A DNA stretch of 38,569 nt from positions 1 to 38,569 of IMG/VR virus record IMGVR_UViG_3300019872_000007; one strand, written 5' to 3'. The notes beneath the pieces are model-generated. The model saw nothing but the letters and a program-made list of their open reading frames with translations, searched no databases and had not been told where the DNA came from. Every line of letters starts with the position of its first letter. Within the stretch, counting starts at the first letter, position 1. Source of the stretch: a virus. Lineage: Duplodnaviria > Caudoviricetes. The translations under genes and the position numbers were made by a program. Below, one piece after another: positions 6,561-30,745 of the stretch.

Positions 6561-7190
6561 CTATTGCACGTGTTTCCATGTTTTTCCTTGACCGACTAAA
6601 GAGATTGCCATAAAACTAACTCCATATTTTCTTGAAAGAAAGGCTTTTGTAACACCCAAAGAAAGCATTTTTCTAATTTCAGGGATATCGCTGTCTTTAA
6701 GCTTTGCAAGGGGTCTAGATTCTCCATGACACGATCTTCCTTTTTTTACACTGTCCTCACTATTCTCTTTGATAGACCCAAGCCATAAGTGCTCAGGATT
6801 CGTACAAGTCGGGTTGTCACAAGAATGACAAACTAAAAATCCTTGGGGAATATCTCCCTTATACATTTCATAGGATAATCTATGCGCTTTATAATGTTTA
6901 TTTTTTCCTGCATAAATATAAGCATATCCGTTTTTATCTAATGAATCTTTCCATCTCCAACAGCCTTTCTGCCTAATGACTTTTTCTTCAAATGAAGCTA
7001 TCATTCTTGCTCTTTTTTCTTCATCAGTAGCTGTAGGCCAAAAAAGACGTTTTTCATTTCCTTTTATCCCAAAATCACGATTTGTACATTTTTTTCCACA
7101 AAATCTTGCGTCTGGTTGCGAATCATGCCTTCTCCATTCAAACTCTCTTTCACATGTTTCACAAACTGATTTTCCTAATTTACATGCCAT
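6561..7190 (-). CDS. HNH homing endonuclease (start ATG 7190)
   Basis: CW-W, AHRLSY, VCHSCDNPTCTNPEHL...N motif; N-terminal zinc finger, C-terminal HTH; GGAGG RBS. Confidence 0.92.
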   Translation of the reverse strand: MACKLGKSVCETCEREFEWRRHDSQPDARFCGKKCTNRDFGIKGNEKRLFWPTATDEEKRARMIASFEEKVIRQKGCWRWKDSLDKNGYAYIYAGKNKHYKAHRLSYEMYKGDIPQGFLVCHSCDNPTCTNPEHLWLGSIKENSEDSVKKGRSCHGESRPLAKLKDSDIPEIRKMLSLGVTKAFLSRKYGVSFMAISLVGQGKTWKHVQ

Positions 7191-7241
7191 ATAGCCTCCT
7201 GTCATAGAGGATACATTATCATATACTGTGATTAATCACAA
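7189..7241 (-). promoter_or_regulatory. Promoter plus RBS-sequestering hairpin of the HNH gene
   Basis: TTGTGA-17-TAATGT; hairpin ATGTA.CCTCT/GGAGG.TATAT; palindrome TGTGATTAATCACA at 7227-7240. Confidence 0.5.
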
Positions 7242-11463: not shown

Positions 11464-12159
11464 TTAATTCAATTTTTGGTAGGGGTATCCCCCTTGTTTG
11501 ATCAAAGCGCTGAAGGCTGCGCCTAAAGATGGATTTTTTCCAACCCACCATTGACCATGTTCATTTTTGCCTTCTGTTTTTGCTGGAACCGCGCCATTAG
11601 CAAAAATTTGATATATTTGTTTTGGTACTCCTTGATATCCGTATATGGCTCCGGACTGGAACCGGACTTTGAGCGCTCCACTTTTCGGATCATACTGGAA
11701 TCCATAAATGTTACTTGAGTCTAAAGGCGCTCTATCTATGCTATCAGCGGAGCCTCGCTCACCTTGCGGCATTTGTTGTTCTAGCCTTGCCAATACACTC
11801 GCTAAAGCCTGCGGATTATTAGCTAAGGCATTCAATGCAGCATCAGGAAAAGTCCTGGCATAGTTTATAAATGCATCGGCTTGCCCACCTGACAATATCC
11901 AAAGCAGATCAGCCCCTTGAGGCATTGGAGCATTTATAGGGCCTTGGGCCTCCGGCGATCCTAGCTCTTCAGATGGTTGTGACTCTCCAATTTGGCTACT
12001 TATCTGATCAATTTCATCTGTTAATTGGCTTAATTCCTGTGCTATCTGCCCTTGAAATTCATCACTTAATACTTCGCCAGATTGCAAAACTTCCTGAATT
12101 CCTGCTAAAAGTTCACTCAATAATTTCTCAAGTTCTTCTCTTCGGGCAAATAAATTCAC
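11464..12159 (-). CDS. KTSC-domain protein
   Basis: C-terminal SSNIYGFQYDPKSGALKVRFQSGAIYGYQGVP...SLG. Confidence 0.8.
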   Translation of the reverse strand: MNLFARREELEKLLSELLAGIQEVLQSGEVLSDEFQGQIAQELSQLTDEIDQISSQIGESQPSEELGSPEAQGPINAPMPQGADLLWILSGGQADAFINYARTFPDAALNALANNPQALASVLARLEQQMPQGERGSADSIDRAPLDSSNIYGFQYDPKSGALKVRFQSGAIYGYQGVPKQIYQIFANGAVPAKTEGKNEHGQWWVGKNPSLGAAFSALIKQGGYPYQKLN

Positions 12160-20314: not shown

Positions 20315-20857
20315 TTATATACTTATGTCCAGAAGCTTTCCGTGGGTATGTCTATGACACGTCTTACATAGCCAAATGATTTCAAGTCGCTTCTCATAGT
20401 CTTCATGATGGGCTTCAGGCTTACATTCTTTACAACACTTCTCACACAGAGAAGGTCTAATTAATTTCCCTCTAGAAATTTGTTTATAAACATAATTTCT
20501 AGCTAATTCTTTTGGTCTATCCTGAAGCCTTCTCGCCTTCTCTGTTTCTGCAAATCTTTCTGGATTATTTTTTCTCCAGTTTTTTACAGATTCATTGTTG
20601 ACTTTTCTTCGCTCAGGTGTTCGACGCCTTTCATTTATTTTATCCTTATTTTTTTCTAAGGATCTCCTGGTCTGTTCTTTTACTTTTTCAGGATTCCTTT
20701 CCCTCCAGGAAGAAACGAGAAGTCTTCGTTTCTCTTTCCCTTCTGGTGTTTGATTCCTTCTCTTGCAATATGCCTTCCAACACTCCTTACAGTCATCATG
20801 ATTTTTGTAAAAATCTGAGACTTCTTTATTGCTTTCACACACCTTGCATTTTTTCAT
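20315..20857 (-). CDS. Zinc-finger HNH endonuclease (start ATG 20857)
   Basis: KCKVC...FY...CKEC N-terminus; CEKC...AHHEDY...WLCKTCH. Confidence 0.8.
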   Translation of the reverse strand: MKKCKVCESNKEVSDFYKNHDDCKECWKAYCKRRNQTPEGKEKRRLLVSSWRERNPEKVKEQTRRSLEKNKDKINERRRTPERRKVNNESVKNWRKNNPERFAETEKARRLQDRPKELARNYVYKQISRGKLIRPSLCEKCCKECKPEAHHEDYEKRLEIIWLCKTCHRHTHGKLLDISI

Positions 20858-20858
20858 A

Positions 20859-20910
20859 ATGGTATCCTCCGTTTTATTAGAGAATACCATATTGCTATTT
20901 CACTGAAAAC
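20859..20910 (-). promoter_or_regulatory. RBS-sequestering hairpin with overlapping extended -10
   Basis: ATGGTATTCTCT-N8-GGAGGATACCAT; TG-G-TATTCT lies in the 5' arm. Confidence 0.65.
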
Positions 20911-21958: not shown

Positions 21959-22927
21959 TTAGCTTGGGGTAGTTGTAGTGCAGTTTAGGCCAGATATCCA
22001 GTTTTGGTTAGTGATTGCTCTCGCAATCGCAAACTTAGCATATAACTGGCTGTTCTGCGCTACAGATGAAACTACCCAAGGTGGTCTATAGCCGATAACA
22101 GCTGTATAGTTATTCTGTTCGATCTTAGCCGCTGCTTCTAGACCGTACATAGGAACGGTATAGACCGTACGCCCAAGCATAGAAATCCCCGGTGTCTTTG
22201 CAGCTTTTGATGACACGAAGAATCGGAATCGTGAGATCGAGCAATACTCTTCAGGGCGCAAACCTTCCTGAGACGGGTAAGCATTCTTGAGCAATACGCC
22301 CTGAACTTTCTGAAGATCGTTCGTCAAATTAGTATTTGCCAAAGCTATGAAGGCGTCTCGGGTTGGGCCTGTTGAAAACTTATCCATCGCATCTATGCTT
22401 ACAAGCATTGTGCGAGCATCATTACCAAGCAAAATGGTTTCAATATTGTTAATATCATTGAGACTTAAGTTGCTAGGCTGATCCCCGTTACCACCACCAG
22501 TTGCATTGATGTAAGATACGCTTGAGGCGAAAAGATCACGCATTAGCAGGTCTTCTTTTTCACGAAGCCATTGACCAAGCAATGCAGTGAACTTTGTTAG
22601 CGTCTTACTATTTTCATAGAGGACAACTTGTTCATTGGTAATTATTGACTTTGCATAGATCTCCATCGTCGCATCGATATCTGTGCGTTGTGGCACTTCA
22701 GAAGCTGGATCAACGCCTGAACCATCAAGTTGGCCACCATCCGTAGATAGGCGCTCAAATCGAGACATACGTGTAGTCTTGCCGATATAGGCTTCTGCAT
22801 GGTGTAAATCTACACCGAAGCTATGAATCAAATTAAACATTGGCGTGCTGAGCAAGTCTTCCGCAGCTTGCACGGGCAGCTCAGGCGCAAAGTTATTTAT
22901 ATTGGTGATCCCTGTGGGGAATGACAT
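21959..22927 (-). CDS. Major capsid protein, N4-gp56-like (start ATG 22927)
   Basis: GKTTRMSRFERL, TDIDATMEIY, EDLLMRD, YPSQ...EEYCS..RFRF; GAGGTG RBS; synteny. Confidence 0.85.
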   Translation of the reverse strand: MSFPTGITNINNFAPELPVQAAEDLLSTPMFNLIHSFGVDLHHAEAYIGKTTRMSRFERLSTDGGQLDGSGVDPASEVPQRTDIDATMEIYAKSIITNEQVVLYENSKTLTKFTALLGQWLREKEDLLMRDLFASSVSYINATGGGNGDQPSNLSLNDINNIETILLGNDARTMLVSIDAMDKFSTGPTRDAFIALANTNLTNDLQKVQGVLLKNAYPSQEGLRPEEYCSISRFRFFVSSKAAKTPGISMLGRTVYTVPMYGLEAAAKIEQNNYTAVIGYRPPWVVSSVAQNSQLYAKFAIARAITNQNWISGLNCTTTTPS

Positions 22928-22931
22928 GTTT

Positions 22932-23040
22932 GCACCTCGCAAAACAGGTTGATATGTATCCTAGCGGCGAACTAGTAATATCTGCCTGCACTGGCGAGGT
23001 GCGATTCAGCCTGGGCTAGCGAAGCCCCGATCAGCTGAGT
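22932..23040 (-). promoter_or_regulatory. Structured 5' leader of the capsid mRNA
   Basis: Three hairpins with YTCGCYR loops; 9-nt anti-SD. Confidence 0.65.
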
Positions 23041-23062
23041 CTATGTATAGCGATTTAACTTT

Positions 23063-23320
23063 TTATTGTAAAGAATTTTTTCGATCTTGCCTAATTTGTT
23101 CAAGTTTTATCTTATATACATTTTTCAGCACATCCTCTAGAAAATTATTTCGATTTTCAATTTGCCTCTTCTCATGCTTCGTGTCTTGCCAATAATCTGC
23201 ATACATTTCTTCATTACATTTATGTATCGACATGCAAGATTTTTGATGCTGATCATGGGAATACCAAAATACATTTGATAATATAACTATAACTAATAGA
23301 AAATATTCTAATATGGTCAT
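23063..23320 (-). CDS. Small membrane-anchored coiled-coil protein
   Basis: N-terminal TM segment; GAGGAG RBS; ATGA overlap. Confidence 0.65.
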   Translation of the reverse strand: MTILEYFLLVIVILSNVFWYSHDQHQKSCMSIHKCNEEMYADYWQDTKHEKRQIENRNNFLEDVLKNVYKIKLEQIRQDRKNSLQ

Positions 23321-23553: not shown

Positions 23554-23579
23554 GTCAACCTCCTGTTGTTGTCCGATTT

Positions 23580-23634
23580 GAAAAGTATGCCAGGTAAGCG
23601 GAATCTTACTTTTCGGGTGCGCGCCCTAGGCATA
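23580..23634 (-). promoter_or_regulatory. Structured leader (three-way junction with an alternative fold)
   Basis: TATGCC/GGCATA encloses GGG.GCGC.CCC and GTAAG/CTTAC; alternative GAAAAGTA/TACTTTTC. Confidence 0.5.
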
Positions 23635-23639
23635 ACAAT

Positions 23640-23687: not shown

Positions 23688-24401
23688 TTAACCAGTAGTA
23701 CTTCTAATAAGCTTTTGCATTCTATCCCAGTTAGCGGCCTTCCTTGCTTCATCTAATTTATAGGATGGGATGGATGCAGATCCTTGAGCGTTCCCCATAG
23801 CAGAAAGAGAGCCCGGCTTATTCAGATTTTTATCCGCTTTTAGGGATTCTCCCTTAGAGTCTGTATTAGGAACGAACTTTTTAACCGCTTTATAAATGGA
23901 GGACCATTTTTCAAATCCATCAGGCATATGCTTAAAGGGTGTTGCCAATTCGGGATAATGATATTCCAGGTAATCAAGATTTTCACTCGAACACACCTTG
24001 TTAAAGTCGGAATAAATTGTACGTAACTTTTCAGGATATTCGGCTTGCTCTTTTTGAGCTCTTTCCTTTTCATATATAGATTCACGTTCAGCAATAATCT
24101 CTCTGACACGTTTTTCAATGCGCGCATCTTCACTTTCTTCTTGCTGCTCATATTGCTGGGTTTGCTGTATCGGCTTGTTTGTGATAGCTTCTAGAGCCGC
24201 TCGCAAGGCTGCTGCTTCTTCCGCCTTCTGTTGAACCATCTTATCAGCTTCAAATCTAGCTTTTCTTTCGGCCTCTCTTTGGTCTCTAAATGCTTTCCAG
24301 TTAGCTTGATTCTCTTCAGTTTTAATTATGGGTTGCGCTTCAGCTTGGGTCACAGGTTGTATTTGATTTTGCTCTGTGCTAACATTATTTTCATCACTCA
24401 T
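23688..24401 (-). CDS. Putative capsid scaffolding protein
   Basis: Charged coiled coil, low-complexity linker, C-terminal helix; lies between portal and capsid genes. Confidence 0.7.
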   Translation of the reverse strand: MSDENNVSTEQNQIQPVTQAEAQPIIKTEENQANWKAFRDQREAERKARFEADKMVQQKAEEAAALRAALEAITNKPIQQTQQYEQQEESEDARIEKRVREIIAERESIYEKERAQKEQAEYPEKLRTIYSDFNKVCSSENLDYLEYHYPELATPFKHMPDGFEKWSSIYKAVKKFVPNTDSKGESLKADKNLNKPGSLSAMGNAQGSASIPSYKLDEARKAANWDRMQKLIRSTTG

Positions 24402-24415
24402 GGAGACTCCTTTTT

Positions 24416-24691
24416 ATGGCTAATACTATTCCTAAAACGACTGTCCGTAAGATAAACAAGAAACTAGTTGAAAGTCTAGAGAATTATCAAAAAATGATAG
24501 GATATATGGCCGGAGATTTGCCTCTGCAATGCCTATGCCTTCCTAAAAAGTGTGAGAGGGCATTAATCGATGCAGGCTTCTTGCGGGTCTATGAACTGTT
24601 TGACTTGAATCTTATCGAAATCGAAGGGATCGATATCGTCGGGGCTAGGCAATTGACCGCCTGCTTGAATCAATTCATCTCGATGCGCTAG
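24416..24691 (+). CDS. RNA polymerase alpha-CTD-like (HhH) protein
   Basis: DLPLQCLCLPKKCERALIDAGFLRVYEL...IEGID resembles the alpha-CTD pattern I-x-x-L-x-L...L-x-x-AG-I-x-x-V-x-D-L. Confidence 0.65.
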   Translation: MANTIPKTTVRKINKKLVESLENYQKMIGYMAGDLPLQCLCLPKKCERALIDAGFLRVYELFDLNLIEIEGIDIVGARQLTACLNQFISMR

Positions 24692-25204
24692 AAAATATTC
24701 ATGTTCTGAAGGCATATCGATTTTCTGATCTTCTCTAATGAACTTCCAGAAGTAAAAAGGATCAGAGTTGAAAAACTTTCCATTAATAAGCCTCCACCCC
24801 TTATAAAAAGCGTCGGACCATGCTTTCATGGTTGCGTATCGTTTATCTACAACAGAGAGACTGTGTAGCTCTGCCATTACCACATCTGATGGCAATACCC
24901 ATAGGCGATGGGTTATTCTGTCTAAACTCTTATTATAGAGAAACACAGCCTGATTAGGCCGAGGCTTTGGAAGGTATGGCCAAGCATAGAACTTTCGCCG
25001 CTGAAGATTAGATATCAAAGGATCTTTAGAGATCAACATGATTACGCAAAACTCATTCTCATCAATGATATTGACATGATTCTCAATGCATTTAAGCAAA
25101 TGAGGCTTGATATCATCGGCAAGAGCATGACCAACTTCTAGAGCGCTGTATTTCGTTGTGTCAGATAGGGCTTTATGTGATAGCTGGCCTGCTGTTTGTC
25201 TCAT
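24563..25204 (-). CDS. Conserved-looking hypothetical protein
   Basis: 213 aa, globular; LPKPRPNQAVF, LWVLP. Confidence 0.8.
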   Translation of the reverse strand: MRQTAGQLSHKALSDTTKYSALEVGHALADDIKPHLLKCIENHVNIIDENEFCVIMLISKDPLISNLQRRKFYAWPYLPKPRPNQAVFLYNKSLDRITHRLWVLPSDVVMAELHSLSVVDKRYATMKAWSDAFYKGWRLINGKFFNSDPFYFWKFIREDQKIDMPSEHEYFLAHRDELIQAGGQLPSPDDIDPFDFDKIQVKQFIDPQEACID

Positions 25205-29831: not shown

Positions 29832-30273
29832 CAGCCTCTTTTTTAAGCTTGGCTTTAACAAGCATAAGCTCGTTCTCTAGCTCTTTAATTTGCTCATCTT
29901 TAACATTTATTTCATCTTTACTCAAAGCTTTTCTAGATTCCCTTTCAATTTGAGCGTCTGCATCAGAATCTTCCCTTTTCCTTAGATCTTTAAAGTATAC
30001 TCTTTGCCATCTTTGTTTAAGTGATGGTTCAATTGGAGAATCCTTTTTTAGATACTTAAATCCTACTAATTTAAGTGCTTTTTCATAATAGGGGAAAAAC
30101 TCTGGAGCTACTTGCATAGTATCCCATTGTTTGTCAGTATAACTTTTGTGTATAGAATACCATTGAGATAGATGAATAGGATCATTTTCAATGATCCATT
30201 GTAGCATTTCCTCCCCAAGTTCAATCATTTCATCGGGAGAAAGAGAAACTGTTCTGGGACGTCCACCTGCCAT
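29815..30273 (-). CDS. Terminase small subunit (putative)
   Basis: MAGGRP start, helical, immediately upstream of and overlapping terL. Confidence 0.7.
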   Translation of the reverse strand: MAGGRPRTVSLSPDEMIELGEEMLQWIIENDPIHLSQWYSIHKSYTDKQWDTMQVAPEFFPYYEKALKLVGFKYLKKDSPIEPSLKQRWQRVYFKDLRKREDSDADAQIERESRKALSKDEINVKDEQIKELENELMLVKAKLKKEADVLCN

Positions 30274-30617
30274 TAGAATGGGCACTCCTCAAAAAAACTA
30301 GCCTGTTGATAATTCGGACTACTAATCGGTTCTTGCATCGGCAAGATCTTACTTGGCGATTTACTCTCCCAAGATCTGGCCTCTAAAAAAGACATTATAT
30401 CTTTTGCGAGAAAATTGCTATCCCATTCGAGAGAGTGCCTAAATTTTTTCTCCCCGTTGATAGAAACACTAGTGGACATGGGGGACCAGAAAAGGCCGCC
30501 ATCTTTTCTATTCTTTCGAACGTAAGCGAATCTAAATTTGGAATCGACCGAGAGGTAACAAATTTCTTTGGTGTAGGGATCGTCGGGAAAATATTCGTGA
30601 GAAATAAATTCAATCAT
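30273..30617 (-). CDS. SpoVG-like/ssDNA-binding protein with an SSB-type tail
   Basis: KDGGLFWSPMS motif; disordered linker; acidic EECPF C-terminus. Confidence 0.55.
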   Translation of the reverse strand: MIEFISHEYFPDDPYTKEICYLSVDSKFRFAYVRKNRKDGGLFWSPMSTSVSINGEKKFRHSLEWDSNFLAKDIMSFLEARSWESKSPSKILPMQEPISSPNYQQASFFEECPF

Positions 30618-30745
30618 TAGCATTTTCCTTTCATTTTTGCCTTCGCAACGATCTTGTCTTGTTTCTTATCGGCGTTCAAGAGGCCTTTGAGCTGCTTGCC
30701 TTCCTTAGCATTCTCACCCATAATTTTTTTAATCTTCGCGTCCAT
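30617..30745 (-). CDS. Lys-rich 42-aa protein, absent from the ORF track
   Basis: MDAKIKKIMGENAKEGKQLKGLLNADKKQDKIVAKAKMKGKC; AGGTGA RBS; TAATG coupling. Confidence 0.65.
   Translation of the reverse strand: MDAKIKKIMGENAKEGKQLKGLLNADKKQDKIVAKAKMKGKC

Follow-up and report, generated by a model that had tools for sequence, protein, structure and literature searches.

The window analysed here (38,569 nt, the whole of IMG/VR record IMGVR_UViG_3300019872_000007) is a 38.6-kb phage with a P22-like portal and lambdoid-type replication and recombination genes. The seven MAG contigs that bear on its host disagree, pointing to unrelated taxa, and the cluster members add one more. A 115-nt leader on the minus strand precedes the gene for a major capsid protein, whose start codon lies at 22927 (Table 1). 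The assignment of this downstream gene as the capsid gene agrees with an HMM search, marginally, since TIGR04387 scores 61.7 bits against a cut-off of 60; the protein has no Pfam or PHROG match. The gene upstream of the leader region probably encodes the scaffolding protein. A scaffold-like gene is present in 170 of 189 loci, and its product has an all-helical predicted model with no family match for the protein and no fold match for the model. The other two genes considered here, encoding a KTSC-domain protein and a Thr/Gly-rich protein, lie elsewhere in the window.

Table 1. Leader elements and genes of the window discussed in the text.
Feature	Coordinates	Strand	Basis or remark
Likely scaffolding protein, 237 aa, helical, candidate reader	23688..24401	-	Position and family; name inferred
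Likely sigma-70-type promoter, TTTACA-17-TATACA	23044..23072	-	Read by eye; imperfect match
Module 1 partner strand X1, AGC-U-G, pairs with loop 1	23032..23036	-	Covariation
Hairpin 1, GGGC-TTCGCTA-GCCC, loop UUCGCUA	23013..23027	-	Sequence, folding, alignment
Module 2 partner strand X2, GGC-U-G, pairs with loop 2	23007..23011	-	Covariation
Hairpin 2, GCAC-CTCGCCA-GTGC, loop CUCGCCA	22988..23002	-	5' arm and loop are the anti-SD; 3' arm opens the OFF-rod inner helix
Module 3 partner strand X3, GGC-A-G	22982..22986	-	Partner either loop 3 or 22945-22955 (OFF rod)
Hairpin 3, CTAG-TTCGCCG-CTAG, loop UUCGCCG, tip of OFF rod	22961..22975	-	Folding, alignment
OFF-rod inner helix, 3' strand	22945..22955	-	Folding, partner-swap test
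Shine-Dalgarno (SD) region GCGAGGUGC, paired in OFF rod	22932..22940	-	Folding, partner tests
Major capsid protein, N4-gp56-type, 322 aa, first gene below leader	21959..22927	-	TIGR04387
KTSC-domain protein, 231 aa, candidate reader	11464..12159	-	Pfam PF13619, E 2.6e-11
Thr/Gly-rich fibre-like gene, 638 aa	9533..11449	-	Starts about 14 nt past the KTSC stop; no array in window

The capsid leader and its distribution

The original prediction described three hairpins with a common loop, and an anti-SD switch, ahead of the capsid gene. All three hairpins are present in the minus strand with the stems and coordinates given in Table 1, and the 9-nt segment GCACCTCGC (22994-23002) is the exact complement of GCGAGGTGC (22932-22940). 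The leader region is unusually stable on folding (z = -4.2; 0 of 200 shuffles equally stable), and its lowest-energy fold retains hairpins 1 and 3, with hairpin 2 melted and paired with the SD. The original prediction could not place the leader in a named RNA family, and Rfam 15 gave no match to the window leader at E <= 5, nor to 11 related loci at E <= 1.

To define the set of relatives, 117 loci without a capsid gene, 92 duplicate leaders, 7 short ones and 4 partial ones were dropped, leaving 190 from which the mis-assigned locus L404 was also removed. A further 24 distant loci (29-40% identity) were classed by eye as scaffold-abutting, the scaffold stop lying no more than 40 nt from the capsid start in 23 of them. 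The remaining 165 leaders comprise 162 with capsids at 66-100% identity and three at about 37%. Two or more loop-motif hairpins were found in 139 of these 165 unique related leaders; the corresponding counts are 66 of 825 for shuffled and 4 of 24 for scaffold-abutting leaders. The array is therefore kept in the leaders of homologous capsid genes. Capsid leaders of these phages, which are uncultured and widespread, carry two to four modules, four being found in L216, L351 and L387. When 1.9 Mb were scanned with a strict finder, 107 of the 113 tandem arrays sat in capsid leaders. A covariance model built with the stems only, pseudoknot pairs left out, has one match in the window and recognises L387 (E 1e-5), L386 (E 4e-3) and, weakly, L391 (E 0.44); it found no leader among the 24 scaffold-abutting loci. 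Three complete scaffold-abutting genomes had no match to this model at E <= 0.1, and the sole match in a fourth (49 nt, E 0.06) is inside a coding region. Judging from sequence matches, the leader is present as far as capsids that are only 37% identical.

A first pattern scan returned mostly chance matches and at least five with stems and further modules, all of them capsid leaders of this family, and a stricter scan returned 13 matches, of which two were without structure, three were family leaders and eight were on contigs or loci already in the set. An unconstrained module finder was dropped as too permissive because it gave similar counts in shuffles. The locus search with distant-capsid alignments met sequences too diverse for it, and P0130 gave nothing.

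Ahead of the first module, 70 of 158 leaders have a sigma-70-like promoter scoring at least 8/12 (shuffles, 20%), and in 56 of these 70 good matches the -10 hexamer ends 6-7 nt ahead of the first partner base. Since the position of the promoter is fixed relative to module 1, the mRNA would begin with module 1. A transcription start downstream of the hairpins, named in advance as contrary to the original prediction, is not what these predicted promoters suggest. In the window, the first base of module 1 would be the approximate transcription start; the promoter scan of the window does not list the site read by eye and lists one 21 nt farther upstream (23093-23065). The module occurs where the gene has a promoter of its own and is lacking where the gene comes right after its upstream neighbour, a pattern suggesting that an RNA switch can replace translational coupling.

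A second leader class comprises 24 loci (L028, L032, L050 and 21 others), which have at most one canonical module together with a variant anti-SD hairpin, GAGCC-TACG-CCTC, located about 75 nt before the capsid start. The loop of this hairpin follows the SD flank, and the hairpin pairs better with its own partner in 22 of the 24 loci. The class is scattered over the capsid tree, which suggests exchange of leaders between phages. Leader types are in fact mosaic across the trees of the capsid, the scaffold and three neighbouring proteins, and because this holds for all five trees no partner is singled out.

Strand-loop pairing within the module

Comparison of relatives showed base pairing between loop positions 3-6 and a strand lying upstream, with one base bulged out. 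The module is about 25 nt long and consists of a 5-nt strand RRC-W-G, an A/U-rich linker of 2-9 nt, a stem of 3-6 bp and a 7-nt loop Y-U-C-G-Y-N-A. The strand/loop pairs seen are AGC-U-G/CGCU, GGC-U-G/CGCC, GAC-W-G/CGUC, GGU-U-G/CACC and GGC-U-A/UGCC, with rarer flips. The repeated loop of the original prediction has thus been upheld, while its exact consensus, YUCGCYR, has to be replaced by one that co-varies with the upstream strand.

The own upstream strand scores at least 4 for 306 of 418 hairpins, compared to 9% for strands swapped in from modules with another loop, and within one leader the own strand beats the other in 580 of 696 comparisons and loses in 83. This test picks the best register, and for that reason it was repeated with the strand fixed by the motif alone on 315 modules, with the 24 variant leaders and low-scoring motifs left out. 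Watson-Crick pairs were then found in 302 of 315 modules at loop position 5 (188 expected), in 263 at position 6 (144 expected) and in 302 at position 3 (275 expected). The value at position 4, 311 pairs against 309 expected, is set by the anchor, and positions 2 and 7 showed no pairing excess in the same modules. On the capsid tree, position 5 changes 17 times in the loop, 17 in the strand and 17 jointly for the last module, and 28, 29 and 30 times, respectively, for the penultimate one. A 40-sequence alignment, biased in that most members were picked for three well-paired modules, gave 97-99% pairing for the three crossing helices. All eight stem pairs predicted by RNAalifold in hairpins 1 and 2 change on both sides, as does the stem of hairpin 3. 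The covariation in relatives to which the original prediction had looked for confirmation is therefore present both in the stems and in the strand-loop pairs. The classical topology, in which the loop pairs with a downstream strand, was rejected (15%, compared to 73% for the own upstream strand).

As each loop pairs with the strand just upstream and shows compensatory changes, the unit is a repeated pseudoknot-like module, and both crossing helices covary, as expected of a pseudoknot. The stem and the crossing helix probably coexist in one molecule; alternating hairpins or intermolecular pairing would give equal covariation. A 1-nt link between a paired loop and its stem is unusual for a classical H-type pseudoknot, and on the 3' side such a link fits a loop-strand 'kissing' geometry better. 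The bulged base is U, A or C and is missing in about a tenth of the well-paired modules. Among the 306 well-paired modules, 268 have Y at loop position 1, 207 have a 7-nt loop, and 297 have U at position 2, a count to which the search motif itself contributes. At its 5' side the loop follows the YUNR sequence rule, so the loops resemble the U-turn layout, the backbone turn itself being a prediction. YUNR loops of hok/Sok-type antisense systems offer the next three to four bases for pairing (PMC6562991), and the likeness extends to the 7-nt loop starting Y-U-N-R whose following bases pair with a single strand. In those systems the partner is a separate antisense RNA (PMC6562991), whereas in the capsid leaders the loop pairs in cis, with a strand lying a few bases upstream, and the unit occurs in several copies.

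These pairings bear on what could recognise the leader. The reading first proposed, in which a protein binds free, identical loops, was rejected on the strand-loop covariation at positions 3-6; because the loops are paired, any reader would see a tertiary fold and not a single-stranded motif. A rare loop variant is common to all modules of a leader in 11 of 17 cases, which come from few lineages and a loose finder. Leaders of the L291, L086 and L014 types carry one rare variant across all modules despite different stems, and such shared variants may mark altered reader specificity.

Tandem pseudoknots beside an expression platform resemble riboswitch layouts, a similarity that would suit tandem aptamers for a small molecule or ion. 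We consider a riboswitch very unlikely, since the four paired positions tolerate compensatory change and the bulge varies, leaving few invariant unpaired bases, and since there is no Rfam match and structural genes would be unusual targets. It is also conceivable that strand and loop, which are near reverse complements located just downstream of the promoter, act at the DNA level as half-sites of imperfect inverted repeats for a transcription regulator. The variable spacing (2-9 nt), the independent covariation of the stems in each module, the occurrence of G-U pairs, and an anti-SD pairing that would be meaningless in DNA make this explanation hardly credible.

The competing fold and the Shine-Dalgarno region

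In a competing rod, designated OFF in Table 1, the SD region is taken up by the penultimate hairpin, whose 3' arm joins the last partner strand in pairing with the stretch before the SD. Since the rod uses the middle hairpin and the last partner strand, it consumes exactly what modules 2 and 3 would protect, and pairing of X2 with loop 2 masks the anti-SD. The longer outer stems originally proposed around two hairpins have different standings. That of hairpin 3 corresponds to the conserved inner helix of the RBS-hiding rod, while the one proposed around hairpin 1 would recruit the partner strands belonging to modules 1 and 2.

Of 88 three-module leaders, 79 have the penultimate module as the best match for the RBS region, and this module pairs with its own RBS at -12.8 kcal/mol compared to -8.8 kcal/mol with the RBS of other leaders. 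Own-RBS pairing ranks in the top tenth for 55 of 134 penultimate modules; the figures for the other modules are 18 of 134 and 8 of 88. Likewise, the inner helix of the rod forms better with its own partner in 99 of 111 leaders, and it ranks in the top tenth in 55 of 111 as opposed to 5 of 82 for a control strand. In 112 of 134 leaders, compared to 119 of 268 shuffles, the SD is mostly paired. Because the SD itself is conserved, the anti-SD helix shows only weak column-wise covariation, a level reached by 17 of 500 shuffles. The relatives thus conserve an SD-hiding fold that is mutually exclusive with the modules, and conservation and partner-swap tests support the two-state translational switch with the middle hairpin as anti-SD that had been envisaged. 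We regard the two-state RNA anatomy as highly probable.

With pseudoknot energy excluded, the median cost of keeping hairpin 2 is 10 kcal/mol, and 18 of 134 leaders need less than 2 kcal/mol; on the same terms, the window leader pays 16.6 kcal/mol to retain all three stems. As a point against the switch, forcing the modules raises median SD accessibility only from 0.17 to 0.39, with values above 0.7 in 5 of 134 leaders. The small gap in those 18 leaders, and the omission of pseudoknot and Mg2+ energies, by which the ON state may be underestimated, leave some room for the opposite polarity, in which the modules would sustain translation and unassembled capsid protein, or some such factor, would drive the rod as negative feedback. 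Feedback repression by a structural protein has a precedent in the P22 scaffold. This polarity is nevertheless improbable, as three 4-bp pairings could hardly cover the gap of the window and a module-binding protein would stabilise the ON state.

Module 1 lies outside the rod, yet it is kept, in both leader classes as well as in the second leader described below, and its partner strand is at about +1. The modules could accordingly serve mainly to protect the 5' end of the mRNA or to stall nucleases, the rod just tuning a basal rate. Protection alone needs no rod that consumes loop 2 and strand 3 with partner-specific covariation, and we think this account decidedly improbable.

Proposed regulation of the leader and a second array

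The KTSC gene is followed by a Thr/Gly-rich gene that in many relatives is preceded by a second array. A whole-record search with the covariance model found a second module array in 3 of 10 near-clade records, and 16 of 26 loci around the KTSC gene match the model at E <= 0.1. Where this could be checked, the second array precedes a homologue of the fibre-like gene of the window, and two further cases are weak or were judged by eye. The first module of the second leader lacks the bulge; the leader also contains a GGC-U-G/CGCC module and an anti-SD rod of its own. Its SD is paired in 13 of 16 cases and its stem and anti-SD pairs form at 90% and 82%, respectively, with own-partner preference in just 9 of 16. 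In three KTSC loci, including the window, the fibre-like gene begins 7-70 nt after the KTSC stop and there is no array; in three others, L423, L424 and L432, the intergenic region before the gene is free of modules, and three more could not be judged. G002 and G005 likewise lack modules ahead of their fibre homologue. A repeated TGTCAAACCAT-like motif common to L423 and L432 may be another control element. The Thr/Gly-rich proteins range from 227 to 887 aa and have no family match and no PHROG or PDB sequence match; their composition, repeats and variable length suggest a virion fibre. The presence of the second array in 16 of 26 loci points to a regulon.

The mechanism that we favour, and to which we give a probability of about one half, is a capsid switch that would be off by default and held on by a phage protein binding the modules. 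The modules would form first during transcription from the adjacent promoter, and the unaided RNA would then relax into the rod, which, leaving pseudoknot energy aside, is the more stable by some 10 kcal/mol. Through the folded modules, an RNA-binding protein of the phage would hold translation on; by binding two to four of them at once it could block both entry points of the rod, and would license the capsid gene and, in many relatives, the fibre-like gene. A trans-acting reader is favoured by the reuse of the element before two genes, by the retention of module 1 outside the rod and by the variants shared among modules.

These three features are also what a ligand-free kinetic timer, in which metastable modules would delay the rod so that each new transcript is translated for a limited time, leaves unexplained, together with the four-module leaders L216, L351 and L387. 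Such a timer would have the same two-state anatomy and a precedent in the MS2 maturation leader (PMC4615214). Prefix folding of the window leader, in which the rod forms only once the SD has been transcribed, is compatible with it. It would also need no specific partner, as expected from leader types that move freely among phages and from the lack of a protein that tracks the modules perfectly. A timer would cap output, which would be odd for the most abundant virion protein. We rate timing without a ligand as possible but rather unlikely.

If a reader protein holds the switch on, as we prefer, the KTSC protein and the scaffold are about equally likely to be that reader, together accounting for perhaps half of the odds. 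The KTSC domain has been described as RNA-binding. Its gene is present in 29 of 30 near-clade records, in none of 13 distant records without the leader (four of them complete) and in none of three distant module-bearing records, one of which is complete; it is missing from G002, a complete genome with four modules, and from G021, which is 91% complete. None of 5 related records has the SpoVG-like protein named in the original prediction (30273-30623, an assignment made in this analysis), the capsid leader yielded no Com-like protein, and by co-occurrence no candidate fits every genome. An Arg-rich helix of the scaffold (mean 3.9-4.0 Arg in 18 aa against 2.3) was discarded as a clue to the reader because it is confounded by clade. 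Near the scaffold gene, a 213-aa protein (24563-25204, -) is conserved in near and distant relatives; its predicted model is confident (pLDDT 85), and the fold search gave no clear match for it (best Z 3.0). Between the two genes, on the opposite strand, lies a 91-aa gene (24416-24691, +), which occurs in 118 near loci and was not found in the three distant module-bearing records. As a lead only, its product resembles the RNA polymerase alpha C-terminal domain.

A more extended proposal, which we hold tentatively and at less than even odds, is that translation is the level at which these phages control their late genes, that host-type promoters transcribe genes for high-copy virion proteins into locked mRNAs, and that one phage protein, with a KTSC domain or the scaffold, would recognise a repeated, sequence-flexible pseudoknot with an anticodon-like loop and so unlock a small regulon. 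How tailed phages match capsid output to the supply of scaffold and fibre is little understood. If correct, the proposal would bring an RNA tertiary motif and a phage regulon that are both new, and it might give a KTSC domain, or a scaffold in the role of activator, its first defined RNA target. The strong covariation of the modules, the defined competing fold, the two target genes, the 115-nt length of the leader and the small number of candidate proteins make the question testable. Such a compact, repeatable and sequence-flexible switch could also serve as a regulatory part.

The P22 scaffold has been implicated in translational autoregulation, which Wyckoff and Casjens reportedly described in 1985. 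In T4, a phage protein regulates translation through the leader structure, the operator pseudoknot of gene 32 (PMC10690425). The T4 leader is comparable in having a pseudoknot and the P22 case in concerning a morphogenesis gene; both are negative autoregulation of the protein's own gene, whereas module binding here would activate other genes. In the Com/mom system of phage Mu, mRNA folding conceals the start signals, and binding of a phage protein to a hairpin close by exposes them (PMC6483171); should a protein activate the capsid leader, it would work alike. As described there, Com reads one sequence motif in one hairpin loop, whereas the capsid leader has two to four sequence-variable pseudoknot-like modules, a long two-part rod and structural genes as targets. 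Once the maturation 5' UTR of MS2 (Levivirus) has reached its final fold, the SD is paired with a complement located upstream of it, and this complement is sequestered by a metastable structure (PMC4615214). The capsid leader similarly has an upstream SD complement and a competing fold, and would work alike if timing decides. On the other hand, MS2 is an RNA phage whose leader controls a low-copy protein through one transient hairpin (PMC4615214), while the present element is found in DNA phages, before the major capsid gene and also before a second gene, and its loop-pairing modules are repeated. The capsid leader is a member of neither type.

A literature search returned no description of this capsid-leader element. 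The word 'capsid' is absent from the main texts of Weinberg 2017 and of the Minerva preprint. The candidates DNAVirus_3698 and DNAVirus_865 of Fremin et al. 2023 are structured RNAs within 25 bp of capsid_maj_N4 genes (37 and 4 cases, respectively), each with two covarying bases (PMC10690425). The first is mostly marine and lake, the second scores as coding (RNAcode p 1e-8), and the text compared describes no pseudoknot or switch for either (PMC10690425). The module motif strings were not found in the readable supplements, a search that left out the alignment archives and one table. As these candidates are set apart by table rows and not by alignments, a prior automatic detection of this element is possible. 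It is likely that the repeated module, which is uncatalogued, and the proposed two-gene regulon are new, the translational leader switch being of a known kind.

Other elements are found at or near these loci. The leaders L226, L228, L240, L262, L293, L294, L297, L323 and L327 have long extra hairpins or repeated TGTAAAGC/GCTTTACA-like palindromes between modules 1 and 2. In the window, an int-alpA-like RNA (23572-23636, -; 35.1 bits compared to a gathering score of 35.8) with its own promoter-like site (23668-23640) precedes two small ORFs located between the scaffold and the capsid leader. A similar RNA is found in L005 (1693-1756, +; 36.7 bits), which also has a homologue of the first of the two ORFs. 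Endonuclease-like genes (20315-20890 and 6561-7205, both on the minus strand; PHROG endonuclease and Pfam HNH_3) are inserted among the structural genes.
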